NCBI GenBank assembly: GCA_016187335.1
Contig: JACPJW010000001.1
Coordinates: forward strand, 832,001-896,000
Direction of reading: 5' to 3'
DNA length: 64,000 bases
From: Candidatus Aenigmatarchaeota archaeon
Lineage (GTDB): Archaea; Aenigmatarchaeota; Aenigmatarchaeia; GW2011-AR5
Shown piece after piece: positions 52,374 through 64,000 of this stretch (positions within the stretch are counted from its first letter, which is position 1; each line of letters starts with the position of its first letter). The notes under the pieces were generated by a model. The model worked only from the letters and a program-made list of their open reading frames with translations. It did no database searches and was not told the origin of the DNA. The position numbers and the translations under genes were made by a program.

Positions 52374-52784
52374 TTACTTTCTAAAGGCCTTAGCGCAGCT
52401 GGGGCAGCAGAAATATTTTGTCGCGCCTTTCACTTTCTCGCTGTGGCCGCCGCTGTATATCTCGCAGCCGCAGTGGGCGCACGTCTTGAGCCTGTTTTGC
52501 ACGGCAAGTTCAACCATAGAACCGAATTTTTCTATCATTGCTTTTGAAAATCTTTCGCCGCTTTTCGTCAGAACGTAAACCTTCTTGTCTCTGGTTCCGA
52601 CCTTTCGTATTTTCACATAACCAAGATTCTGCAGCTTTTTCAGGAAAGGGTATATCTGTCCGGGCGAGGCGTTCCTGCCCAGCTTCTCCTTTATCGTTTT
52701 GATTATCTCGTAGCCGTGCACCTGCTTTTGCAGAAGCAGCAGTGCGTACAGCTTCACCAAGTTGTCTACCCTGACTTCTTTCAT
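52374..52784 (-). CDS. PadR wHTH fused to C-terminal TRASH/YHS-like metal-binding domain
   Basis: HGYEII, PGQIYPFL, KKVYVLTKSG; CAHCGCEI..YFCCPSC. Confidence 0.9.
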   Translation of the reverse strand: MKEVRVDNLVKLYALLLLQKQVHGYEIIKTIKEKLGRNASPGQIYPFLKKLQNLGYVKIRKVGTRDKKVYVLTKSGERFSKAMIEKFGSMVELAVQNRLKTCAHCGCEIYSGGHSEKVKGATKYFCCPSCAKAFRK

Positions 52785-52821
52785 GAACTATTCTTATGGA
52801 AGAATCTTTAAATATATTACT

Positions 52822-52849
52822 TATCATGATATATCAGATTATGATATAT
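52822..52849. promoter_or_regulatory. Candidate operator in divergent promoter
   Basis: ATATATCA-N5-TGATATAT (52829-52849) plus overlapping palindromes TATCATGATA and TGATATATCA. Confidence 0.5.
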
Positions 52850-52861
52850 GGAGGCGGTTAA

Positions 52862-53185
52862 ATGGCAAAAAAGAAGGAATGGAACGCGGCTTTGATTTTT
52901 GGCGCCGGTATGCTGGCTATGCTAATGCTTCTGACAGCATGGAATTACGCAACTGCACCGCGCTATCCCAACGCTTACATGATGCCTATGGCGAGGATGA
53001 TGATGGGAAGCGCAAGAAGCGTTGATTGCGGCTCCCTGACGGAAAACGACCTGGAAATAATAGGTGACAGCATGATGGGTCAGATGATCGGCGACGAACA
53101 GCTGCATGAGCAGATGGACGCACAAATGCGCGATGAAAGGGTAATGCATATACTCATGGCAAAGATGATGACCGGTTGTCGATAA
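52862..53185 (+). CDS. Met-rich single-TM protein, putative Cu(I)/Ag(I) binder
   Basis: 19 Met in 107 aa, two Cys, LHEQMD and MHILM. Confidence 0.75.
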   Translation: MAKKKEWNAALIFGAGMLAMLMLLTAWNYATAPRYPNAYMMPMARMMMGSARSVDCGSLTENDLEIIGDSMMGQMIGDEQLHEQMDAQMRDERVMHILMAKMMTGCR

Positions 53186-53200
53186 TGGAGGTATGATATC

Positions 53201-53437
53201 ATGGCACTGAACGAAAAAGCCTTTGCGTTCGCGTCAGCGGCAGTAACCGCTTTGACCGACGTGGCGGGCTATGTGTGGCACGGCCTGCTTCAGCAGCCGA
53301 GCATGATGAACACGCTGTATCCGGGATTCTGGAGCGACTGGACACTGATGGCTCTAGGTTTGATCGGAACAGTTGTTGGCGCCTACATATTGGGCTACGT
53401 GTTCGCATGGGCTTACAACAAGCAGAGCAAGAAGTAA
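53201..53437 (+). CDS. Small 2-TM membrane protein
   Basis: GGAGG RBS; two hydrophobic helices. Confidence 0.75.
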   Translation: MALNEKAFAFASAAVTALTDVAGYVWHGLLQQPSMMNTLYPGFWSDWTLMALGLIGTVVGAYILGYVFAWAYNKQSKK

Positions 53438-53449
53438 ATCAATAAAGAA

Positions 53450-53662
53450 GTGATGAAAAGAATGGTGAAACAAAATCTGGACAGACTTGACAGGGTCCTG
53501 CGCTTTGCGCTCGCCTTCTGGTGGCTCGGGCCTCTTGCCCCGCAATACAGCGCCGTGTGGGCAAACTGGATTATAGCTGCTATAGGCTGGATCGCGCTCA
53601 TAGAGAGCTTCATCGGCTGGTGCTGGCTGCATGACATGCTTGGCATAAAAAAGGGTAGGTGA
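53450..53662 (+). CDS. DUF2892 (YgaP-like) membrane protein
   Basis: QNLDRLDRVLR..IGWCWL. Confidence 0.85.
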   Translation: MMKRMVKQNLDRLDRVLRFALAFWWLGPLAPQYSAVWANWIIAAIGWIALIESFIGWCWLHDMLGIKKGR

Positions 53663-53666
53663 TTTC

Positions 53667-53705
53667 ATGGCAAAGAAGAAGGAAAGGAAGCACGGCTGCT
53701 GCTGA
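53667..53705 (+). CDS. 12-aa peptide MAKKKERKHGCC
   Basis: AGGTGAT RBS 3 nt before ATG; followed by T-rich tract. Confidence 0.45.
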   Translation: MAKKKERKHGCC

Positions 53706-53733
53706 GTTTTTTGTTTTTTATCTTCTTTTTAAT
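53706..53733 (+). terminator. T-rich archaeal-type terminator
   Basis: GTTTTTTGTTTTTTATCTTCTTTTT. Confidence 0.5.
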
Positions 53734-53753
53734 TGATTCGGCGGGATGATTTT

Positions 53754-53981
53754 ATGAAAGAAAAATGCCTGGTATGCGGCATGGAAAAAATTTATTCAAA
53801 CCAGCATAAATGCAAGAGAAGCAAGCTTCTCTGTAAGATGTGCGGCATGGCGGTAAACTATGAAAGCGCCGAATATTTTATGAATTTTGTTTTCTGCTCC
53901 AAGAGGTGCAGGATTCTGTTTGAAAATCTGCTTGAAAAAACAAACGTTAAGGATTTATTTGAGAGAGAAATTGTAATTTAG
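53754..53981 (+). CDS. Small TRASH/YHS-type metal-binding protein, putative Cu chaperone
   Basis: CLVCGM, CKMCGM, FCSKRC; directly upstream of copA. Confidence 0.75.
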
Positions 53982-53989
53982 GGGTAACC

Positions 53990-56098
53990 ATGGCAAAAGA
54001 CGTAATATGCGGCATGTACGTTGACGAGAAGACGCCGTTCAGGGCGGAGCAGGACGGCGTAAAGTATTACTTCTGCAGCCAGAAGTGCCTTGACACGTTT
54101 TTGCAGCCGCAGGTTGAGATGAGAAAGCTGAAATACCTGACGGTGTTCGCTTTGACTTTCGGCTTCCTTACCGCGTTCTTTGAATATTTCTACCCTGTGT
54201 CGCCTTTCGGCCTGCCTAACTACGTTCTATTGTTTCTGTTAGCCACGCCGGTCCAGTTCGTAGCCGGCTGGCGCTTCTACCAGGGCGCGCGCGACGCTGT
54301 AAAGGCAAAGCAGGCGAACATGGACCTTCTCATTGCCATAGGCACGAGCGCCGCGTGGATTTACTCAACGCTGTACACATTCCAGGGCATTTTGTGGCCA
54401 AGGTTCCTGCCGTCAGTGTCAGCAGGAACGGAGGTTTATTTCACGGAATCCGGGCTCATTATTGGCTTCATCCTTCTCGGAAAATACATGGAGCACATCG
54501 TTAAAGGAAGGGCGTCGCGGGCAATAAGCCGCCTGATTGACTTGCAGCCCAGGATGGCAACAGTTGTCAGAAAGGGAAAGGAAATTCAGGTGCCCGTAGA
54601 GCAGGTGAAAGTCGGAGATGTTATCATCGTAAAGCCCGGCGAGAAAATACCCGTTGACGGGCTGGTTGTTGACGGCTATTCTTCCGTTGACCAGTCAATG
54701 ATAACCGGAGAAAGCATTCCTGTGGAAAAAAAGAAAGGCGACGAGGTAATCGGTGCGACCATAAACAAAACGGGCTTGCTGAAAGTAAAAGCGACTAAGG
54801 TGGGAAGCGACACAACGCTGTCGCAGATAGTCAAGATGGTCCAGGAAGCGATTGTCTCAAGGACGCCGATGCAGCGCCTGGCCGACGTTGTTTCGTCTTA
54901 TTTCGTGCCTGCTGTGGTGCTCATAGCCGTATCTTCCTTCCTGTTCTGGTATTACATAGCTGGCCTGGAGTTCTCTTTGGCATTCACGATGCTCATCGCC
55001 GTGCTGATTATCGCATGCCCTTGCGCCCTGGGCATTGCCACGCCCGCTGCAATAATGATAGGCGCGGGCAAGGGCGCGCAATACGGTATCCTGATAAAAA
55101 GCGGCGAGTATCTCGAAAAGGCGAGAAAGATTAACGTTATTGTTTTTGACAAGACGGGAACGCTGACAAGGGGTGAACCGTCAGTAACAGACGTGATGCC
55201 AATAAGCGGCAGCGACAAGGATGTTCTCCGGTACGCAGCGATAGCTGAGAAAGGCTCGGAGCATCCGCTTGGTGAAGCGATCGTCCGCGCTGCGCAGGAA
55301 AAAAGAATAAAAATACCTTCTGCAGGCAGATTCCGCGCAATTCCTGGTCACGGCGTGGAAGCTTCCTATCAGGGAAAGAAAATCCTGCTGGGGAACAGGA
55401 AATTAATGGGAAAGAGCAAGATAAAGATTGGGAGCGAGGAAAAAATTCAGCAGCTTGAAAATGAGGGAAAAACCGTCATGCTTCTGGCAGTCAATAAAAA
55501 ACTTCTCGGCATGATTGCTGTCGCCGACACGCTGAAGGAAGAATCAGCGGAAACCGTGGAGAAGCTTCATAGTATGAACATTGAGACTGTCATGATAACC
55601 GGCGACAACCCCAGGACAGCTGATGCCATAGCATCAAAGTTAGGAATAAAGCGCGTGCTTGCGGAAGTGCTGCCGCAGGACAAGGCAAAAGAAATAAAAA
55701 AGCTGCAAAAAGAAGGTAAGATAGTTGCTATGGTCGGCGACGGCATAAACGACGCGCCCGCGCTTGCGCAGGCTGATGTCGGCATCGCCGTAGGCGCGGG
55801 AACGGACGTTGCAAAGGAAACCGGCGGCATAATATTGATCAAGAACGACCTCCGCGACGTTGTGTTCAGCATTGAATTGAGCAGGAAAACCGTGAGGAAG
55901 ATAAAGGAGAATCTTTTCTGGGCGTTCTTCTATAACATCGCCCTCATCCCGGTTGCCGCCGGTGCCCTGTATCCTTTCGGGATACTGCTTAATCCTGTTT
56001 ACGCCGCGATAGCGATGGCGCTCAGCTCCGTCACGGTCGTCGGCAACTCCATGCTGCTGAACCTGTACAATCCGAAAAAAGGTGATGCGCATCAATGA
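53990..56098 (+). CDS. copA: P1B-1 Cu(I)-exporting ATPase with N-terminal YHS domain
   Basis: [39 protein letters not shown] and MALSS. Confidence 0.97.
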
Positions 56099-57236
56099 GA
56101 AAAAAGTGGCTTCATTTATCATAGCCATACTCATACTGTCAATTTTGGCGATAATCATATTGTCCGTGTCAATGGCATGGTTCTTTTTCAAGTCGCCGCC
56201 AAAGACCGGCGGGATTTCCGAGAATGTCCTGAAATCTTCAATGAAAGGGATGATGGGCTACGCATCGCCTGATGACATTCCAATTAGGACTCCGCATGAC
56301 AGGACACCGTTAAGCTTTAATGAGAAAGACGGCGTCAAAGAATTCCGTCTTTCTGCGGAGCCTATAAGATGGGAATACGCGAACGGCTATTACGTGACAG
56401 CATGGGGGTTCAACGGCCAGGTGCCGGGACCGGAGATACGCGTTTCAGAAGGCGACAGGGTGAGAATAATTTTCACGAATAACCTTCCAAAGGCAACAGC
56501 AGTCCACTGGCACGGCGTAAACGTCCCTAACGGCATGGATGGCGTTCCCGGCGTTACGCAGGAAGCTGTAAAGCCCAATGAAACTTTCGTTTACGAATTC
56601 ACAGCAGAACCAAAAGGCACAAGATACTACCATGCCCACGGCTCGTCGCACATGGACGAGGCCCAGCAGCTTGACATGGGATTGTACGGCGCATTCATAA
56701 TAGAGCCAAGCAACTTTTCAGAAAAGTTGCATCAAAACGGTAAATACGACAAGGAATTTACGCTGCTGCTTGACGAATGGGAAATCATGCCCGATGGAAC
56801 AAACGCTGCCATGCTGCCAGGAATGCATTCAATGGACCATAACGTTTTTACCATAAACGGAAGAGCTTTTCCCGACACGGAGCCGCTCAATGTCGCGGAA
56901 GGAGATAAGGTTCTTGTGAGAATAATAAACGCCGGCTCGTCAACGGCACATCCCATGCACTTGCACGGGCATTCCTTCAAAATTGTTGCCGTTGACGGGA
57001 ATCCCGTGCAGGCGGGGGCGCAGATTGTGAGGGACACCCTGCCTGTGAGCCCGGGAGAGCGATATGATATAGAAATCACGGCCGGCAATCCCGGAACATG
57101 GATATTCCACTGCCACGAGCTTCATCATGCGGACGGCGGGATGATAATACCTTTTATGTATGAAGGGTATGATAACATAAGCAGGCCGCCATCCCAAAAA
57201 GTGCCGGGCTTGGGGCACGAAATGCACGGAGGATAA
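56082..57236 (+). CDS. Two-domain multicopper oxidase, membrane-anchored
   Basis: [30 protein letters not shown]. Confidence 0.93.
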
Positions 57237-57237
57237 A

Positions 57238-57735
57238 ATGTTAAGCAACATTTCATTGAGCAGGAAAAACATCGGCGCGATAATCATAGTCATATCGCTT
57301 TTCATCTTCGTGCTTTCATACCTCTACATGGACACCGTGAAAAAGCTGGATGCGCAGCTCCACAAGGACTGCGACCTGCCTGACGAGATATGCCCGTTCA
57401 AGAAGAACATACCGCCCGAAGCTGCGGCGGGCTTCGCCGTTTCAGCCGTTACAGGCTTGTTCGGCGCTTTCGTTTATTTTTCCTCTCCCAAAAACGAAAA
57501 GGAAGTCGCGGAAAAATTAAGCAGGAGCAAAGAAATTCTCTCAAGGCTTGACATCGACGAAAAGAAAATCTACGGCATGATAGCAGAAAGCGGCTCAGTG
57601 TTCCAGAGCGAGCTTGTTGAGAAGAGCGGCATGAGCAAGGTGAAGATAACGCGATTATTGGATAGATTAGAGTCAAAAGGCGTCGTGGAAAGGAAGAGAA
57701 GGGGCATGACGAACATAGTCATGGTGAAGCAGTAA
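57238..57735 (+). CDS. 2-TM protein with HxxCxxxxxxCP loop and C-terminal wHTH
   Basis: LHKDCDLPDEICPF; QSELVEKSGMSKVKITRLLDRLESKG. Confidence 0.85.
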   Translation: MLSNISLSRKNIGAIIIVISLFIFVLSYLYMDTVKKLDAQLHKDCDLPDEICPFKKNIPPEAAAGFAVSAVTGLFGAFVYFSSPKNEKEVAEKLSRSKEILSRLDIDEKKIYGMIAESGSVFQSELVEKSGMSKVKITRLLDRLESKGVVERKRRGMTNIVMVKQ

Positions 57736-57859
57736 AACGAAGAATTTCTCTTTCATCTAATTCTATTTTAATTGCAGAACAAAATGGAAGTTCAAATAGC
57801 TCGGTAAGTTGCCAGAACCAAGCATTACCATCAACTTTATTATGCCGATATTCACATAA

Positions 57860-59170
57860 ATGATTATCATGAAAAACAAAAAAGGCCATTACAAGCTGAA
57901 GCGCTCGCTGGGATTGCTTGAGTTGTCTTTGTACGGCATCGGGATAATCCTCGGCGCCGGGATTTACGCCCTGATAGGCGTTGGCGCAGGGATTGCCGGA
58001 AATGCGTTGTGGATTTCCTTTGTCGTAGCGGCGATGATAGCGGCTTTTACGGGGCTGAGCTACGCGGAACTGTCTTCTATATATCCTAAGGAAGCCGCGG
58101 AATACAATTACACGAAAAATGCGTTCAATAGAAAATACCTGTCGTTCAGCGTAGGCTGGCTCATGGTCGTCGCAAGCGTCGTCGCGGCTGTTACCGTGGC
58201 TTTCGGCTTCGCAGGTTATTTCACGCACATGTTCGGCGGCAACGTAACAATTGTCGCTGCCGCTCTGGTCCTGGTTCTTTCGGCCATAAATTACATCGGG
58301 ATAAAGGAGTCATCCGCCTTTAACATAGTTTCCACTATTATTGAAAGCGCAGGCCTGCTGATTGTGATTTTTGTAGGGCTGCTCTTTTTCGGCTCAAACG
58401 GAGTCAGTGTCGACCTGTTCGAGACCCCGGGCAGTGCGGGCATTCCTGCAATCCTTTCCGCGACGGCGCTGATATTCTTCGCTTACCTGGGCTTCGAGGA
58501 CATTGTCAACGTTTCCGAAGAGACGAAAAACGCAAAAAAGATTGTCCCGAAAGCGCTTTTGATAGCGATAGTCGTGTCCACGGTGCTTTACATTCTGGTG
58601 GCCCTCTCCGCCGTGAATATCTTGGGATGGGAAAGGCTTGCCGCGAGCAAGGCGCCGCTCACGGAGGCGGTTTCTTCGGTAATTCCTAACAGCGATTTCA
58701 TGTTTTCGCTCATTGCGCTTTTTGCAACGGCGAACACGGCGCTGATACTGCTCATTGTCGGCTCGCGCATACTTTACGGCATGTCTTCGGACCGCTCCAT
58801 GCCCGAAATGTTCTCCGTCATAGGCAAGAGGGGAACGCCTTATTTCTCCGTCGCGGCTGTCGCGCTTGCCTCGATGGCTGTAACCTCTGTCGGAAACATC
58901 AAGGCTGTTGCGTCGATAACCGACATCACGCTGTTCATCATCTATTTCGCCGTCAACGCGTCGCTGATTGCGCTGCGATATAAACAGCCCAATGCGAAAA
59001 GAACTTTCAGGACTCCCCTGAACATCGGAAAATTCCCGGTCCTCGCTTTCCTCGGCCTGCTTTCCTCGCTCTTCATGCTGTTTTATTTTGAGAAGGACCT
59101 CATCGTCATCGAAATCGCCCTCATCCTTGCGGGCTTCGTTCTTTACAAGGCTTTCGGCAAGAAACAGTGA
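57860..59170 (+). CDS. APC family amino acid permease
   Basis: GIILGAGIY, YAELSS, FAYLGFEDI, SRILYGMS. Confidence 0.93.
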   Translation: MIIMKNKKGHYKLKRSLGLLELSLYGIGIILGAGIYALIGVGAGIAGNALWISFVVAAMIAAFTGLSYAELSSIYPKEAAEYNYTKNAFNRKYLSFSVGWLMVVASVVAAVTVAFGFAGYFTHMFGGNVTIVAAALVLVLSAINYIGIKESSAFNIVSTIIESAGLLIVIFVGLLFFGSNGVSVDLFETPGSAGIPAILSATALIFFAYLGFEDIVNVSEETKNAKKIVPKALLIAIVVSTVLYILVALSAVNILGWERLAASKAPLTEAVSSVIPNSDFMFSLIALFATANTALILLIVGSRILYGMSSDRSMPEMFSVIGKRGTPYFSVAAVALASMAVTSVGNIKAVASITDITLFIIYFAVNASLIALRYKQPNAKRTFRTPLNIGKFPVLAFLGLLSSLFMLFYFEKDLIVIEIALILAGFVLYKAFGKKQ

Positions 59171-59191
59171 AACTTTTTCCAGAAATTCCTC
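59169..59191 (+). repeat. Degenerate copy of REP-like element
   Basis: GAAACTTTTTCCAGAAATTCCTC overlapping permease stop codon. Confidence 0.4.
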
Positions 59192-59347
59192 AGAATCTGA
59201 GCTTGTTCACGACGCCGTCCAGTGCCTTGGCAAATTTCTTGTGCAAAATAATTTCAGAAACCTCGTTGGCGAAGTCGCCGAATCTGTGCTTTCTGACCTT
59301 GTTTTTCACGAATCCTATTGGCATGAAAGTGATTTCTTCCGTAGCGT

Positions 59348-59782
59348 TCACCCCGCGCCGCTGATTTTCTTTCGGGGCATCAGGTAGAGTGAAACAAGCC
59401 TGTCAGCAAGCTTGTCCTCGTATTTCATCAGGTCTGTTGCAGTTACCATGCCTATGCACCTGTTGTCCTTGCATACTGGCAGCCGCTTGATGTTGTGCTT
59501 CAGCATAAGTCTTGCAGCTTCTTCCAGCGTCGTTTCCGGCGTTATCGTGATGACTTTTTTTGTCATTATGTTTTTTATCAGCGTGTCCGGGCTTTTCCCT
59601 GCTGCAAACGCCTTTAAAATATCCCGCTCCGTGATGATGCCGCTCAGCTCAAAGCTGTCAACAACAATCAGGGAGCCGATGCCGTACTTGCTCATGACCT
59701 CGGCGGCAAACCTTATTGTTTCGCCTGGCTCGATTATTTTCAGCTTCGTGCTCATGATTTCCTTGACTTTCATCGGTTTCAA
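59348..59782 (-). CDS. CBS-pair protein
   Basis: GSLIVVD..GIITERD; RLPV..GMVTATD. Confidence 0.93.
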   Translation of the reverse strand: MKPMKVKEIMSTKLKIIEPGETIRFAAEVMSKYGIGSLIVVDSFELSGIITERDILKAFAAGKSPDTLIKNIMTKKVITITPETTLEEAARLMLKHNIKRLPVCKDNRCIGMVTATDLMKYEDKLADRLVSLYLMPRKKISGAG

Positions 59783-59831
59783 TTCCTCCGCTGATGACTT
59801 AACATTATAGTTCCTTGCTTATAAATAGCTA

Positions 59832-59847
59832 GATGAAACTAGTTTCA
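59832..59847 (-). repeat. Loop-less copy of REP-like element
   Basis: Minus strand TGAAACT-AGTTTCATC. Confidence 0.45.
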
Positions 59848-59885
59848 CCTTATCCGATATATGGTGTTTCATTTATTCTAAATGC

Positions 59886-60620
59886 ATGAACGAAAAGGAA
59901 AACGGCAACAAAGAAAAGCGCGGGGAAGTCGTAAACCTGAGCATCCCGCTGGAAACAATAACCATCGTCCTGGCAGTTGCCCTGGTCATCGTGGTTGTCT
60001 ACAACCAGCTGGCAATCAACGAGCTCGGCTACCTTGCGGCTGCGGTCGGCGCGTCGCCGGAAAACCAGAACGCCGCTCAAAGCGCTGTATTAAGCAGCAT
60101 TGACGTGACTCCGAAAGGCGTTCCGGCGGTGTACGGAGCGGAACTCGGAATAAGCTACGATGACGTGAGCGCAGGCAATCCCCAGAAAGCCGATGCAACG
60201 ATACAAAAATTAGCGGCATATGACACAAGCATAGAGCTTGATGCGCAGCAGCTTGAGCGGTACGTGAAAATTGCAGGCCAGATATCCTGCGAGTACTGCT
60301 GCGGGGCCGACTCAATTATCTTCACGAAGGATTCAGGACAGTACAAGAAGGGCGACGCGGCATGCGGCTGCGCGCACAGCTACGCGATGAGGGGCTTGGC
60401 GAAATACCTGATAACGCAGCACGGTGACGAATTCACGGACGACCAGATACTCGAGGAACTGGGCAAGTGGAAGACGCTGTTCTTCCCTGACATCCTGGCA
60501 CAGAAAGCTGCAGTGCTCCAGGATAAAGGAATAGAGCTTAACTACGTGAACCTTGCCTCCAACAAGTACAGGAACATAGAAGCGGGAACTGACGGAGGCG
60601 GAATGGTAGGAGGTTGCTGA
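59886..60620 (+). CDS. Single-TM Cys-rich protein ending in MVGGC
   Basis: CEYCC, CGCAHS, terminal GGGMVGGC. Confidence 0.85.
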   Translation: MNEKENGNKEKRGEVVNLSIPLETITIVLAVALVIVVVYNQLAINELGYLAAAVGASPENQNAAQSAVLSSIDVTPKGVPAVYGAELGISYDDVSAGNPQKADATIQKLAAYDTSIELDAQQLERYVKIAGQISCEYCCGADSIIFTKDSGQYKKGDAACGCAHSYAMRGLAKYLITQHGDEFTDDQILEELGKWKTLFFPDILAQKAAVLQDKGIELNYVNLASNKYRNIEAGTDGGGMVGGC

Positions 60621-60624
60621 ATTT

Positions 60625-60658
60625 GAAACTTTGCTTCTCCAAAGTTTCATCAAAAGAG
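60625..60658 (+). repeat. REP-like hairpin element
   Basis: GAAACTTTG-CTTCTC-CAAAGTTTC-ATCAAAAGAG. Confidence 0.75.
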
Positions 60659-60673
60659 ACTAGTGGTGAATAA

Positions 60674-60865
60674 ATGAACGTAAATATCTTGTTTGCAGTA
60701 TTCATGGCTGTCCTGCTTGTGCTGTCCGTGTTCCAGACGATGCAGATAACAAGCATAAAGAGCGAGCTGAAAACAAAAATATCTGCCTCGCCGTCTGCCG
60801 CATCAAGCAGTCAAAGCCAGGGAAGCACGGGCTCCAGCAGCTCCGGAATGGTCGGTGGGTGCTGA
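60674..60865 (+). CDS. Small TM + Ser-rich linker protein ending in MVGGC
   Basis: 63 aa; terminal SSGMVGGC. Confidence 0.8.
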   Translation: MNVNILFAVFMAVLLVLSVFQTMQITSIKSELKTKISASPSAASSSQSQGSTGSSSSGMVGGC

Positions 60866-61377
60866 TGATAGCCTTCTTTGCTTTTTTTATTATTTTTTTG
60901 CTTTCGCTGGCGCAGAAATCTTTCGCCCACTGCCCGCTGTGCGTGGCTGCAACGGGCTCTGTGGTGGCTGCATCAAGGGTAATGGGAGTTGACGATGCCA
61001 TAACCGGAACGTTCGCGGGAGCTTTCATAATATCGACAGCATTGTGGACGGACAAAATGCTTTCAAAAAGAAAAGTCCATCTGCCTTTGCAGCCATACCT
61101 GCTGTCGGCGCTATTCATTACAATGACATTCGCAGGGTTTTACCTTTTCGGATTCGTCGGGACCGAGCCGGGATTCCTTAGCATAATGGGGATCGAGAGG
61201 CTCTCTTTTGGCATCATTGCCGGAAGCTTAATAGTCCTGATTTCGTATGAAGCTCACAACTTTTTGAGAAAATCGAACAGCGGCAGGAATCACATACCTT
61301 TCCAGGGAATTCTTGTGCCGATAATTGCTCTGGTCATTTTTGACGTGCTGATGTACGTAGCAGGTGTGTTCGGATGA
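60865..61377 (+). CDS. Membrane protein with signal peptide followed by HCPLC
   Basis: SFA/HCPLC then about 4 TMs; overlaps upstream stop. Confidence 0.8.
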   Translation: MIAFFAFFIIFLLSLAQKSFAHCPLCVAATGSVVAASRVMGVDDAITGTFAGAFIISTALWTDKMLSKRKVHLPLQPYLLSALFITMTFAGFYLFGFVGTEPGFLSIMGIERLSFGIIAGSLIVLISYEAHNFLRKSNSGRNHIPFQGILVPIIALVIFDVLMYVAGVFG

Positions 61378-61799
61378 AGCCGCAGAAAAATAATAAGGGA
61401 AATGAGGTTAGAAGGAGAAAAACCGTAGGTTTTTCCTCCTCTAAAGGCGATGTAACGAAGGCGCAGGACCTCGCGCTCGCAGTCACGAACCTGATAAGCC
61501 TTGAGGAGCACCTTGCCTTCACGGCAATGAAGACAGGAAACAGCGACTTTCACGAGATGGCTAAAGCAGTGAGAAAGATAAGAATCATGTGCCTGCGCAA
61601 CCTGATAGGCGAGCCTGCGGGCGAGTTATGGTGCTCGTCAAAGCACGCGCTGTCGGCCATGATGCGTTTGTTTGAGGTCGCGAGCAAGGAAGAAGGCAAA
61701 AAATGCGAGGAATACATGAAAGCTGCGTTCGATCTGTACCAGCTGTTCTGGCTTTTCAAGGAGATAGGAAATGATGGAACTAAAACTAAAAAGGCTTAA
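61374..61799 (+). CDS. Helical hypothetical protein with His/Cys motifs
   Basis: NLISLEEH, LWCSSKH; ATGA overlap. Confidence 0.8.
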   Translation: MKPQKNNKGNEVRRRKTVGFSSSKGDVTKAQDLALAVTNLISLEEHLAFTAMKTGNSDFHEMAKAVRKIRIMCLRNLIGEPAGELWCSSKHALSAMMRLFEVASKEEGKKCEEYMKAAFDLYQLFWLFKEIGNDGTKTKKA

Positions 61800-61868
61800 A
61801 GCAAAATTAAGCAAAGCGGTAAAAAACGCGCTGCAGTGCTGCTACGAGGAGTGAACAAACTTTTCAAA

Positions 61869-62267
61869 ATGGTGATAAAATTCATGAAGAAGATATACCT
61901 TGCACTTGCTGTATTTCTGGTCGCCGCGCTTGTCGCAGGAGTTGTCATAGCATTTCCCAATAAAAATGCGGTTCCGGCGTATGCAACAAGGCATCCCCTG
62001 ATAAAGGAAGCCTACATGTTTTCAGTGGACAGCCCCGAAGCACTTGACGGCGTGAACTGCTACTGCGGCTGCATGCACCACCCTCATGACGGGCGCATTC
62101 ATGCCCGCGGGCTGCTTGACTGCTTCAGGACAGCAGACGGCGGCTTTGACCGGCACGCGAGTGAGTGCGACATGTGCATCAAGGATGCACTAGAGGTCAA
62201 GCAGATGACCCAGCAGGGAAAATCACGCGATGAAATAAGAAGCTACATAGACGGAAAATACGCCTGA
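61869..62267 (+). CDS. PCYCGC-motif protein
   Basis: NCYCGCMHH, LLDCF, HASECDMC; N-terminal anchor. Confidence 0.85.
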   Translation: MVIKFMKKIYLALAVFLVAALVAGVVIAFPNKNAVPAYATRHPLIKEAYMFSVDSPEALDGVNCYCGCMHHPHDGRIHARGLLDCFRTADGGFDRHASECDMCIKDALEVKQMTQQGKSRDEIRSYIDGKYA

Positions 62268-62269
62268 AA

Positions 62270-62346
62270 GAAACTTTTCCAAAAAGTTTCATCATTTGCG
62301 AAGAAACAAAGTTTCTTCGAAATCCCGAAGAACTTCGCTCTTCGAG
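62270..62346 (+). repeat. REP-like hairpin plus two further hairpins
   Basis: GAAACTTTT-CCA-AAAAGTTTCATC; CGAAGAAAC-AAA-GTTTCTTCG; CGAAGA..TCTTCG. Confidence 0.65.
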
Positions 62347-62417
62347 GAAAATGGTAGACCTTCTTAGAGGTCTTCAATCAAAAATAAGAATCCAAGGTTT
62401 GCTTTCCATCTTGATAG

Positions 62418-62885
62418 ATGATTGTTATGAAAAAAACGGGGAAAAAGAACGGCAAAAGTATCTTTGGTTGGCTGGGTTCAGCTTCAGGAAGCGGCGCGAT
62501 AGCGGGCGCCCACAACGTATGCCATGCCCTGTGCCAGGGCTTGGTTCTTTTCTTGGCGCTGTTCGGGATAGCCGTCTCGTCAACCGCCCTCATGTTTCTG
62601 GAGGACTACGCGGTGTATTTCTGGTCAATGGGACTGTTTTTCCTTTTAATCTCGGCGTATTTTTTTGCTGTCAGGAAACAGGGCTCGCAAAAGCTGCTGC
62701 TCGCGAACTCGGGAATACTTTTGGCAGGAATACCTTTCAGGCAGTTCGAGGCATTTTCGGCGGCTTTTCTTGCCGCGGGCGGGGCGATGATAGCTTTCAG
62801 TGTTTTCCTTTATTTGAACGAAAGAAATTTTCTTGTATTTGGAAATAGGAACAATGGAGGGCGTAAGAATGGCAAAAGTGGCTAA
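62418..62885 (+). CDS. Membrane protein with HxxCHxxC motif
   Basis: AHNVCHALCQ followed by about 4 TMs. Confidence 0.75.
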   Translation: MIVMKKTGKKNGKSIFGWLGSASGSGAIAGAHNVCHALCQGLVLFLALFGIAVSSTALMFLEDYAVYFWSMGLFFLLISAYFFAVRKQGSQKLLLANSGILLAGIPFRQFEAFSAAFLAAGGAMIAFSVFLYLNERNFLVFGNRNNGGRKNGKSG

Positions 62886-63111
62886 GGAAAAAATATTCAC
62901 GTATGTATTGGCAGGAGCGATAGCAGTGCTCGTCGCAGTTCTTTTATGGTCGCTGCTCCAGCCGGCGCCTGATTACTACGGCGCCAGCTATGAGCGCGCG
63001 AAGCAGAGCAAGCTGTCAGACAAATGCGCGACGCCGTCTGGCTACACCGATGCGCAGTGGCGCGAGCATATGGGCCACCACCCGGACCAGTACGCGGAAT
63101 GCTTTAAGTAA
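62869..63111 (+). CDS. Single-TM protein with Cys/His/Met C-terminal motif
   Basis: CATPSGYTDAQWREHMGHHPDQYAECF. Confidence 0.8.
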   Translation: MAKVAKEKIFTYVLAGAIAVLVAVLLWSLLQPAPDYYGASYERAKQSKLSDKCATPSGYTDAQWREHMGHHPDQYAECFK

Positions 63112-63146
63112 ATTTTTGAATAATTTGAACTGCGGAAAGGATAGGA

Positions 63147-63764
63147 ATGAAAATGAAAAAAGCCGCATATATTGCCGCAGGGCTTATTCTTGTTGCTATA
63201 ATCTACCTTGCATTCTTCACCAAGCCTTCCTATGAGCCGGGAGAGATGGAAGAGCACATCAGGGGAAACCACAACGCTCCCATTGTCATCGTGGAGTTCA
63301 GCGACTTCCAGTGCCCTTACTGCAGGGCCGTGCAGCCGGCGCTCAACCAGCTGCTAACGGAATACCCCGATGATGTCAAGCTGATTTACCGGCATTTCCC
63401 GCTGCCTTCGCACCAGTACGCCATGAAAGCCGCGGAAGCCTCGGAATGCGCAGCCAACCAGGGAAAGTTCTGGGAATATCACGACATGCTTTTCCAGAAT
63501 CAGGAGCGGCTTGACGTAAATTCGCTGAAAAGTTACGCAAAGCAACTTGGATTAAACACGACCTCTTTCAATGCGTGCCTTGACAGCGGAGCAATGCAGC
63601 AACGCATAGAAATAATCGTAAAGAACGGCGCGGAGAAAGGCGTTACAGGGACGCCGACATTCCTGATAAACGACAAAATGCTGTCAGGCAACCAGCCCTA
63701 CAGCGTGTTCAAAACATCTGTGGACGAAGAGCTGAAAAAATTAAATGAAACCCGGCGAGTCTAA
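63147..63764 (+). CDS. DsbA family thiol-disulfide oxidoreductase
   Basis: EFSDFQCPYC, YRHFPL, GVTGTPTF; N-terminal anchor. Confidence 0.95.
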   Translation: MKMKKAAYIAAGLILVAIIYLAFFTKPSYEPGEMEEHIRGNHNAPIVIVEFSDFQCPYCRAVQPALNQLLTEYPDDVKLIYRHFPLPSHQYAMKAAEASECAANQGKFWEYHDMLFQNQERLDVNSLKSYAKQLGLNTTSFNACLDSGAMQQRIEIIVKNGAEKGVTGTPTFLINDKMLSGNQPYSVFKTSVDEELKKLNETRRV

Positions 63765-64000
63765 TGATTTGCATCGCGGCTTTGATAGTCCTCGGCATTC
63801 TCGGCATTTTTTCCGCATATCATCGGAAGCTCGCCAGAGAAGCCTTTGACTGCGTGCTGAACAGGATAAAGCTGCGCGAGTGCGAGGCGGGCTTTGACCG
63901 CAGGATGAAGATGGCTGTTTTCAATAAGCTTTCATGGTCGCCGCGCCTTGCACGGCTCTGGTATGACCACTTTGAGCTTGTTTCGTGGGCTTTCGTGATT
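63764..64000 (+). CDS. Cys-containing membrane protein, truncated by window end
   Basis: MICIAALIVLGILGIFS..AFDCV..LREC; start overlaps dsbA stop. Confidence 0.75.
   Translation, partial: MICIAALIVLGILGIFSAYHRKLAREAFDCVLNRIKLRECEAGFDRRMKMAVFNKLSWSPRLARLWYDHFELVSWAFVI

Follow-up and report, generated by a model that had tools for sequence, protein, structure and literature searches.

A copA-linked cluster of predicted envelope proteins with conserved cysteines in an Aenigmatarchaeota genome and its DPANN relatives

The cluster and its copper genes

The window analysed here is a 64,000-nt stretch of DNA (C2:832001-896000) from the 1.01-Mb, two-contig, 91%-complete genome of a Candidatus Aenigmatarchaeota archaeon. 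From position 52374 on it holds a gene cluster in which genes for a copper exporter, a multicopper oxidase and a DsbA-like oxidoreductase stand among genes for small proteins with cysteine motifs, several of which fall in no described family. The closest public relatives of the host genome are groundwater metagenome-assembled genomes labelled Aenigmatarchaeota, and the stretch was detected in groundwater metagenomes; the only DNA runs that contain it are from groundwater, and no RNA run was listed for it. Positions 52374-64105 hold 19 open reading frames (ORFs), numbered g01 to g19, and one 12-codon micro-ORF, with 17 of the 19 ORFs on the + strand, in keeping with the original prediction of about 20 co-oriented genes. 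The features are as follows.

g01, 52374..52784, - strand: PadR winged-helix regulator with a C-terminal TRASH cysteine motif (Pfam PadR 4e-15, TRASH_HVO_1752_C 2e-8)
g02, 52862..53185, + strand: membrane-anchored Met-rich protein (MMPMARMMMG, MMGQM, MAKMMTGC) with one N-terminal hydrophobic helix, from sequence
g03, 53201..53437, + strand: 78-aa membrane protein, conserved WHG..QPS..LYPGFW, no Cys; no Pfam match, from alignment
g04, 53450..53662, + strand: YgaP-like transmembrane domain (DUF2892; Pfam PF11127 1e-10) with a conserved GWC
micro-ORF, 53667..53705, + strand: MAKKKERKHGCC, 12 codons, with a ribosome-binding-site-like GGTAGGTGAT upstream and a T-rich tract downstream
g05, 53733..53981, + strand: 82-aa cytoplasmic protein with two CxxCGM and FCSxxC (TRASH/YHS-like), from sequence; only a weak YacG zinc-ribbon match
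g06, 53990..56098, + strand: CopA, a Cu(I)/Ag(I) exporter of the P1B-1 ATPase class, YHS/TRASH domain at the N-terminus (Pfam, sequence motifs)
g07, 56082..57236, + strand: two-domain multicopper oxidase, anchored in the membrane, with HEMHGG at its C-terminal end (Pfam Cu-oxidase_3 5e-43, Cu-oxidase_2 3e-33)
g08, 57238..57735, + strand: transmembrane helix, outside loop (LH.D..C-x6-CP), transmembrane helix and cytoplasmic winged helix-turn-helix (wHTH) domain (Pfam DUF7343 7e-10, MarR 5e-8)
g09, 57860..59170, + strand: APC-family amino-acid permease (Pfam AA_permease_2 6e-50)
g10, 59348..59782, - strand: CBS-pair protein (Pfam CBS 1e-35)
g11, 59886..60620, + strand: N-terminal anchor, CcmH-like helical domain and flexible tail ending MVGGC-COOH (AlphaFold2 model, alignment)
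g12, 60674..60865, + strand: transmembrane anchor, Ser-rich linker and MVGGC-COOH, a stand-alone "cysteine arm" (sequence)
g13, 60859..61377, + strand: signal/anchor helix, A-x-C-P-x-C at the outer face and four transmembrane helices (alignments)
g14, 61374..61799, + strand: helical protein of the cytoplasm, invariant at 23 positions (NLIS.EEH, GE.WC.SKH; alignments)
g15, 61836..62267, + strand: membrane-anchored PCYCGC-family protein (NCYCGCMHHPH, ECDMC; Pfam PF13798 3e-13)
g16, 62418..62885, + strand: four-helix membrane protein with an invariant C-H-x2-C in the first helix (alignments)
g17, 62833..63111, + strand: transmembrane anchor and small outside domain with invariant C...H..HHP..Y..C (alignment, 22 relatives)
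g18, 63147..63764, + strand: membrane-anchored DsbA-like oxidoreductase, active site CPYC (Pfam Thioredoxin_4 8e-34, DSBA 1e-26)
g19, 63764..64000, + strand, ending 105 nt past the window (L003:11765-12106): 113-aa protein with two transmembrane helices (full ORF)

Many neighbouring ORFs overlap or lie less than 20 nt apart. The gaps are +15 nt at g02/g03, +12 at g03/g04, +8 at g05/copA and +1 at multicopper oxidase/g08; they are negative at copA/multicopper oxidase (-17), g12/g13 (-7), g13/g14 (-4) and dsbA/g19 (-1), and g16 and g17 also overlap. These nine junctions are consistent with the translational coupling that had been proposed for many of the genes. The g17 ORF probably starts at a later ATG, near 62869. 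The cluster had been expected to run on past the end of the window; it ends 105 nt outside, where g19 stops, and is followed by a convergent DEAD-box helicase gene. The permease and CBS protein genes, which the stretch also encloses, correct an earlier gene list. About 1.6 kb past the window end, just past the helicase gene, lies a 333-aa ORF with a thioredoxin-like WTYSC..C (L003:13620-14621, - strand), which could encode another envelope redox protein.

The anchors named in the original prediction, CopA, the multicopper oxidase, the PadR-TRASH protein, the PCYCGC protein and DsbA, were all confirmed by Pfam. The g06 protein matched E1-E2 ATPase (4e-60), gave a second ATPase/HAD match (2e-42) and matched YHS (1e-10), and its translation has CPC in transmembrane helix 6, N-x6-YN-x4-P in helix 7, M-x2-SS-x5-N in helix 8 and DKTGT, the full set expected of a P1B-1 Cu(I)/Ag(I) ATPase. 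The g07 protein has the two cupredoxin domains and the HxH...HxH...HxxHxH...HCHxxxHxxxxM copper-ligand motifs of a two-domain multicopper oxidase, and is present in few related loci only. The g15 protein scored 50 bits against the PCYCGC cut-off of 25 and is the sole copy in the genome; the only paper found to mention PCYCGC leaves it without an assigned function (PMC13068155).

The regulator g01 joins a PadR wHTH to a C-terminal TRASH-type cysteine motif, as a PadR-family protein with a TRASH sensor should, and is likely a cytoplasmic Cu sensor. It is divergent from the operon here and from g03/copA in relatives. Of the TRASH proteins that had been listed, g01 has a Pfam TRASH match and g05 has a TRASH-like cysteine pattern with no Pfam TRASH match. 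The 77 bp that separate the PadR-TRASH gene from g02 (52785-52861) include the AT-rich palindromic words ATCATGAT and TATGATATAT, which could form an operator. For nine proteins (g02, g03, g11, g12, g13, g14, g16, g17 and g19) scans with Pfam and NCBIfam gave no match. A hydropathy scan found a single N-terminal anchor helix in g02, g07, g11, g12, g15, g17 and g18, and therefore the domains of these proteins are predicted to face outward; it scored g03, g04, g08, g13, g16 and g19 as membrane proteins and g01, g05 and g14 as soluble.

Linkage to copA and conservation of the motifs

Forty related genomes were searched with g11 and the 20-kb surroundings were taken. A recurring order was found: PadR-TRASH on the opposite strand, then g03, copA, g08, g11, (g12), g13, g14, (g15), g16, g17 and (dsbA, g19), with the genes in brackets not always present. 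A profile scan of 185,579 species genomes with g16 gave 48 loci, from Aenigm-, Nano-, Woese-, Micr- and Iainarchaeota. After removal of duplicates, the DPANN loci found with g11 or g16 numbered 54, and in 27 of them copA lay within about 10 kb; chance alone would put roughly 2% of genes that near to a single copA in a 1-Mb genome. The linkage persists although gene order varies among loci, and in the locus set found independently with g14 the archaeal members again lay inside copA clusters. In Woesearchaeota the genes often form one co-directional run, PadR(-)/Met-rich/.../g13-g14-g16-YgaP-copA. Co-occurrence of the families with copA and conservation of their motifs had been set in advance as checks on the original prediction. 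The first held, in half of the unique loci and across DPANN phyla, and on the second the motifs proved invariant in the g08 loop and in g11, g13, g14, g16 and g17. All of the Cys/His/Met motifs quoted earlier are present and conserved in relatives, save that the His of "HCPLC" is variable and the core is A-x-C-P-x-C.

Among the genes nearest to copA, g03 shares a locus with it in 9 of 10 loci and g04 is directly upstream of it in many Woesearchaeota loci. Upstream of copA, six or more related loci encode basic ...GCC-type peptides (MAKKKKESGCC, MAKRKKKQGCC, MGKRKKRASCC and others). The micro-ORF may specify a cytoplasmic peptide of minimal size that binds Cu(I), or else a leader peptide. Relatives of g02 adjoin g01 in Woesearchaeota loci. 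The g08 gene sits between copA and g11 in most loci, and the His and two Cys of its loop are kept in 18 relatives; from its domain order g08 is predicted to be a membrane-bound one-component regulator. In most loci g17 comes after g16. The permease g09 recurs beside the cluster in nine related loci, and that its substrate is cysteine or cystine, which would suit the context, is a guess. The CBS gene g10 is kept at the cluster only in a same-genus locus and is probably outside the system.

The same genome has a paralogous set of genes outside the window, which we call module B (L032:7753-16799; G000:C2:672252-681298). It encodes BlaI/BlaR-type regulators, a protein joining a CPVC membrane domain to a g11 domain, a Met-rich protein paralogous to g02, a 73-aa MVGGC arm, a protein with three thioredoxin repeats and a cupredoxin domain, an NTF2-like protein, a CDVCGM protein, a g16 paralogue, an HxlR regulator and a C2H2-finger membrane protein. 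Module B recurs across DPANN, often beside copA too. The genome has two matches to DsbD_TM/CcdA, at C2:644537 and C2:667178, both far from the cluster; one of them, a true CcdA gene, is found a few kb upstream of module B. The ORF at L032:14597-15439, within module B, was considered as a CcdA and rejected, having no Pfam match and not being among the two DsbD_TM matches.

The thiol proteins and a pair shared with CPR bacteria

The domain of g11 has an invariant CC...CxCxH in 33 aligned sequences (here SCEYCC...ACGCAH). Its AlphaFold2 model was of high confidence (predicted local distance difference test, pLDDT, 93; predicted template modelling score 0.90), and when it was aligned exhaustively with 48,161 representative PDB chains the top structure was the periplasmic domain of CcmH, 2hl7_A (Z 6.0, root-mean-square deviation 2.9 A, 76/82 residues; next row Z 3.9). 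Foldseek of the model against PDB gave no match at E<=0.001. In the Atlas a fold search with our model returned unnamed clusters only, and the Atlas's own model of the family has a CcmH cluster among its neighbours. One of the 33 family members matches Pfam CcmH (E 8e-4), and local hhalign put the g11 CEYC on the CPKC of E. coli CcmH right after helix 1, at 4.6% probability. Pfam searches at permissive thresholds with the g13, g16 and g11 families gave noise, except for one CcmH match. No cytochrome c assembly gene (PF01578) was found in the 91%-complete host genome, which argues that the domain does not serve cytochrome c; given this and a score short of the Pfam CcmH threshold, g11 is taken to have a CcmH-like fold and not to be CcmH. 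The case for a CcmH-like thiol-oxidoreductase fold, a three-helix bundle in which CxxC separates helix 1 from helix 2, is a modest one. Homology of g11 to the PCYCGC protein g15 was also considered: CGCxH aligns, and with BLAST at E 0.06 and hhalign at 3.6% homology is unsupported. Clustered at 90% identity, the g11 family gives at least 2073 groups, every one of them labelled "hypothetical". Only seven longer fusions were found, three with FKBP; the metagenomic proteins P0244-P0246, which fuse the domain to an FKBP-type prolyl isomerase, point to a role in protein folding.

Long forms of g11 terminate in [MQ]VGGC-COOH, usually with LPx before the tail. When the g11 domain is tail-less, the next gene encodes a small protein with an anchor, a Ser/Gly linker and the same tail, so that tail and domain probably act jointly, whether in cis or in trans. 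Small relatives of g12 from several DPANN phyla, 26 in number, keep the [MQ]VGGC end. Among the 7156 ORFs of the host genome a terminal GGC occurs just three times, each time as MVGGC and within the two modules. By these comparisons the ...VGGC-COOH tail is a conserved tag.

The g18 protein has the thioredoxin fold family, the CPYC and the N-terminal anchor (predicted extracytoplasmic) of DsbA/ScsC proteins. It matched the solved ScsC "copper resistance" entries 6nen, 6mhh, 4xvw and 4gxz at 6e-15 to 3e-13, versus about 1e-7 for classical DsbA, which places it by sequence in the ScsC-like subgroup of DsbA. The g19 protein has two Cys pairs, the first in a basic loop on the cytoplasmic side and the second at the outside C-terminus, all at conserved positions. 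In two related archaea it is fused in front of DsbA, in proteins of 307-309 aa (L021:4540-5469 and L022:6838-7761, both on the - strand), and g19 is accordingly the predicted membrane partner of g18. The g19 proteins of two further relatives (L042, L053) carry a Cys-rich C-terminal extension. No match to DsbB (PF02600) was found in the host genome, and the single VKOR match (PF07884) was sub-threshold, stop-interrupted and away from the cluster, so that g18 is left without a known partner; g19 and g13 match neither DsbB nor VKOR.

The g16 protein is the most widespread member of the gene set (at least 258 clusters, all "hypothetical"), and its C-H-x2-C is invariant across 44 sequences. By language-model features it is closest to MerC (0.84). 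With R100 MerC, hhalign gave E 0.002 over 90 columns at a probability of 14%, and with MerT 6%. Pfam MerC (PF03203) matched none of 14 family members at E<=5, nor g16 in the genome scan; the g16 model was mediocre (pLDDT 75) and its fold search gave no consistent neighbours, MerC included. Identity with MerC was rejected on the Pfam result, although four helices and a Cys pair in the first do fit.

Besides its outer-face motif, g13 has conserved cytoplasmic loops (K..K..Q; N..FPFQ). It has no Pfam match and no meaningful PDB sequence-profile match, and a relation to g16 or to the N-terminal membrane domain of the module-B protein was rejected, since only the local CPxC aligns. For g14 there was likewise no Pfam, NCBIfam or meaningful PDB sequence-profile match. 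A g14 profile scan of the species genomes gave at least 586 loci, from DPANN archaea and many lineages of the candidate phyla radiation (CPR/Patescibacteria), at 42-50% identity, and 72 of the 84 unique g13 copies have g14 after them. The CPR forms of g14 end in ...DCCIE. In 11 of 24 CPR loci the gene directly upstream of the pair, often overlapping g13, encodes a small thioredoxin/glutaredoxin-like CPHC lipoprotein; in DPANN the slot is filled by g11-like proteins (20 cases). Two unrelated thiol-oxidoreductase folds thus occupy the same position. The resulting CPR cassette of CPHC lipoprotein, g13-like CPVC membrane protein and g14-like ...DCCIE protein is seen at L106:9146-10576 and also at L109, L115, L124, L141, L145, L150, L155 and L157-L159. 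Archaeal and bacterial versions of the pair share about 45% identity and have a patchy distribution, which suggests exchange of the pair between archaeal and bacterial ultra-small organisms. A complex prediction for g13 with g14 scored 0.00, a result that gives no verdict and is evidence neither way.

Electrons or metal on the cluster cysteines

The cluster is best explained as encoding an accessory, copper-linked thiol system of the DPANN envelope that follows Scs in its logic and is made up of undescribed families, a reading to which we give an even chance; its task would most likely be to protect or service the cell surface under copper stress. CopA would export Cu(I) and the multicopper oxidase g07 would turn it into Cu(II). 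On the surface, g11 with its VGGC arm, g12, g15 and g18/g19 would keep exposed cysteines reduced or properly paired, and probably would also hold Cu(I) briefly on their thiolates. The outer-face CPxC protein g13 and the cytoplasmic g14 would couple surface chemistry to the cytoplasm, with g16, whose CHxxC lies within a helix, as a second link, and the membrane-bound wHTH protein g08 would sense the outside via its H..C-x6-CP loop. The original prediction had been of a network for capture, relay or storage of copper and repair of thiols. Its thiol-redox part is independently supported by the CcmH-like fold of g11 and the ScsC-like DsbA, and its tie to copper genes by the linkage to copA; storage found no support, and the g13-g14 pair is not copper-specific.

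In Salmonella, Proteus and Caulobacter the Scs system has the DsbD-like ScsB, the DsbA-like CPYC protein ScsC and the thioredoxin-like ScsD, beside CopA/CueO/CueP. As in Scs, where envelope thiol oxidoreductases are tied to copper tolerance, the CPYC protein g18 is nearer to ScsC than to classical DsbA and is encoded beside CopA and a multicopper oxidase. Unlike Scs, the cluster lacks a ScsB/DsbD-type partner, the DsbD_TM genes being only elsewhere; g03, g11-g14, g16, g17 and g19 belong to no described family, the host is an archaeon, and a cysteine-tail tag is not known in Scs. Because the logic of copper export with envelope thiol oxidoreductases is known from Scs, the earlier claim of a system beyond those described stands for the parts and not yet for the principle.

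Other systems offer partial likenesses. In the reductive branch of cytochrome c maturation System I, electrons pass from CcdA/DsbD to CcmG and then CcmH. The CcmH match of g11, the low-probability placement of its CEYC on the CxxC after helix 1, and the alignment in module B of a thioredoxin-repeat protein, a g11 domain and a CcdA gene a few kb upstream recall this branch; the difference is a host with no cytochrome c assembly gene found and a g11 with an inserted CC...CxCxH hairpin and a Cys tail. The Sulfolobus CopR/CopT/CopA locus likewise has a TRASH regulator divergent from a Cu(I) ATPase and small TRASH/YHS-like Cys proteins upstream of copA. The DNA-binding domain of Sulfolobus CopR is an Lrp/AsnC-like helix-turn-helix, whereas here it is PadR, and the locus also takes in a second, membrane-bound wHTH protein and an envelope module of ten genes. 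DsbA-DsbB and DsbA-VKOR pairs, including VKOR-thioredoxin fusions, resemble g18/g19 in joining a DsbA-like protein to a dedicated small membrane protein, sometimes fused; g19 differs in having two helices, not four or five, and one Cys pair on the cytoplasmic side.

Several observations weigh against our reading. What the cluster cysteines carry, electrons or metal, we infer, and copper binding and redox activity are predictions for the unknown proteins. The linkage counts are drawn from related, non-independent genomes. The CcmH match of g11 is modest (Z 6, hhalign probability below 5%), Pfam CcmH (PF03918) misses g11 and finds nothing in the host genome at E<=10, and four invariant Cys and a His exceed what a redox CxxC needs and resemble a metal site. 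The g13 protein has no Cys within or inside the membrane, and electron transfer by it is therefore hard to explain; with two ordinary CcdA genes elsewhere in the genome, a new route for reductant is not required. Further, the g13-g14 pair occurs in CPR with no copper genes nearby and with other neighbours that vary, and was present in only 27 of 201 sampled genomes of the host phylum and 37 of 251 sampled Patescibacteria (13-15%), which makes it an accessory pair.

The main rival is a soft-metal thiolate relay on the Mer plan (MerP to MerT/MerC/MerF to MerA), in which the cysteines are metal ligands and not redox centres. The arms, g11, g15 and g17 would capture Cu(I) and pass it across the membrane through g13 (CPxC) and g16 (CHxxC) to g14, the ...GCC micro-peptide and g05, and thence to the YHS domain of CopA for export; or the flow would be outward. 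We hold this to be rather unlikely. It does explain the surplus Cys/His ligands and the membrane-embedded Cys pairs: the CC...CxCxH of g11 is reminiscent of a metal site, g02, rich in Met, and g17, rich in His, are of the kind that typically binds copper in envelopes, and CPxC and CHxxC lie in or at membrane helices, as does the CPC of CopA. MerA has a C-terminal Cys pair, which the ...DCCIE of CPR g14 and the ...GCC of the micro-ORF recall, and as in Mer there are Cys pairs on surface, membrane and cytoplasmic proteins and flexible Cys termini. Language-model features put g16 nearest to MerC, with an hhalign E of 0.002 to R100 MerC, and patchy accessory distribution with high CPR/DPANN conservation is typical of resistance genes. 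However, the MerC assignment of g16 failed in Pfam, its hhalign probability was low and its fold search was empty; the cluster has no MerA and its pump is a copper exporter. Moreover, many tails have Gln, not a Cu(I) ligand, in place of Met, import of copper only for re-export has no obvious benefit, the CPR trio has no copper gene nearby, and both the best fold match of g11 and g18 itself are redox enzymes.

Less probable still is a copper-independent system for extracytoplasmic folding or maturation in ultra-small cells, in which g13-g14 and a surface oxidoreductase (g11 in DPANN, the thioredoxin-like CPHC protein in CPR) form or edit disulfides of surface proteins where quinone-dependent DsbB and VKOR are absent, and copA is nearby in DPANN only because envelope accessory genes cluster. 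The CPR pair does stand alone among housekeeping neighbours, the host shows neither DsbB nor an above-cut-off VKOR, some g11 domains are fused to FKBP isomerase, and DsbA would be anchored by g19. Nevertheless, presence in so small a share of the sampled genomes of either group argues that g13-g14 is not a core folding system; the DPANN genes often lie between PadR-TRASH and copA, co-directionally, in a linkage that outlasts changes of order; and the paralogous module B carries cupredoxin and Met-rich proteins. It is very improbable that the ...GGC-COOH tail carries sulfane sulfur (persulfide) outside the cell, perhaps trapping copper as sulfide, in the manner of SoxY. SoxY has a C-terminal GGCGG swinging arm, and the likeness is that of a Cys offered to partners on a flexible Gly-rich C-terminal peptide; g04 is the transmembrane domain of the membrane rhodanese YgaP, and an Atlas cluster of rhodanese-domain CPR proteins matches the g11 model (template modelling score 0.57). 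Yet the Cys of VGGC is the last residue and its arm is on a membrane tether or a CcmH-like domain, g12 has no SoxY-like domain, the Pfam scans showed no rhodanese or Sox gene in the cluster, and no rhodanese fusion was recovered in the search for longer g11 forms; the idea comes down to a three-residue resemblance.

A more specific proposal is that g13-g14 is an undescribed transmembrane thiol device common to CPR and DPANN, linking cytoplasmic thiols to interchangeable surface oxidoreductases in quinone-poor, ultra-small cells, and that DPANN have elaborated it with ...VGGC-COOH arms that shuttle electrons, copper or sulfur between the CcmH-like CC...CxCxH domain and its partners. We put this forward tentatively and regard it as doubtful. 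If true, the device and its arms would stand in, tethered to the surface, for a soluble low-molecular-weight thiol.

Literature searches on PCYCGC, on MVGGC/QVGGC, on copper or CopA in DPANN and on copper in Aenigmarchaeota found no description of such a system. DPANN and CPR make up a large share of microbial diversity, and their envelope biology is mostly uncharted; at least seven conserved families that lack a relative in Pfam, in NCBIfam or among solved structures now gain a testable context, that of copper export and surface thiols. If our reading is true, it would add a new domain with metal or redox activity, in which a CcmH-like scaffold bears CC...CxCxH, and a new kind of C-terminal cysteine arm, and it would show how surface cysteines can be protected from copper by cells that have no known DsbB, VKOR or soluble periplasmic thiol buffer.

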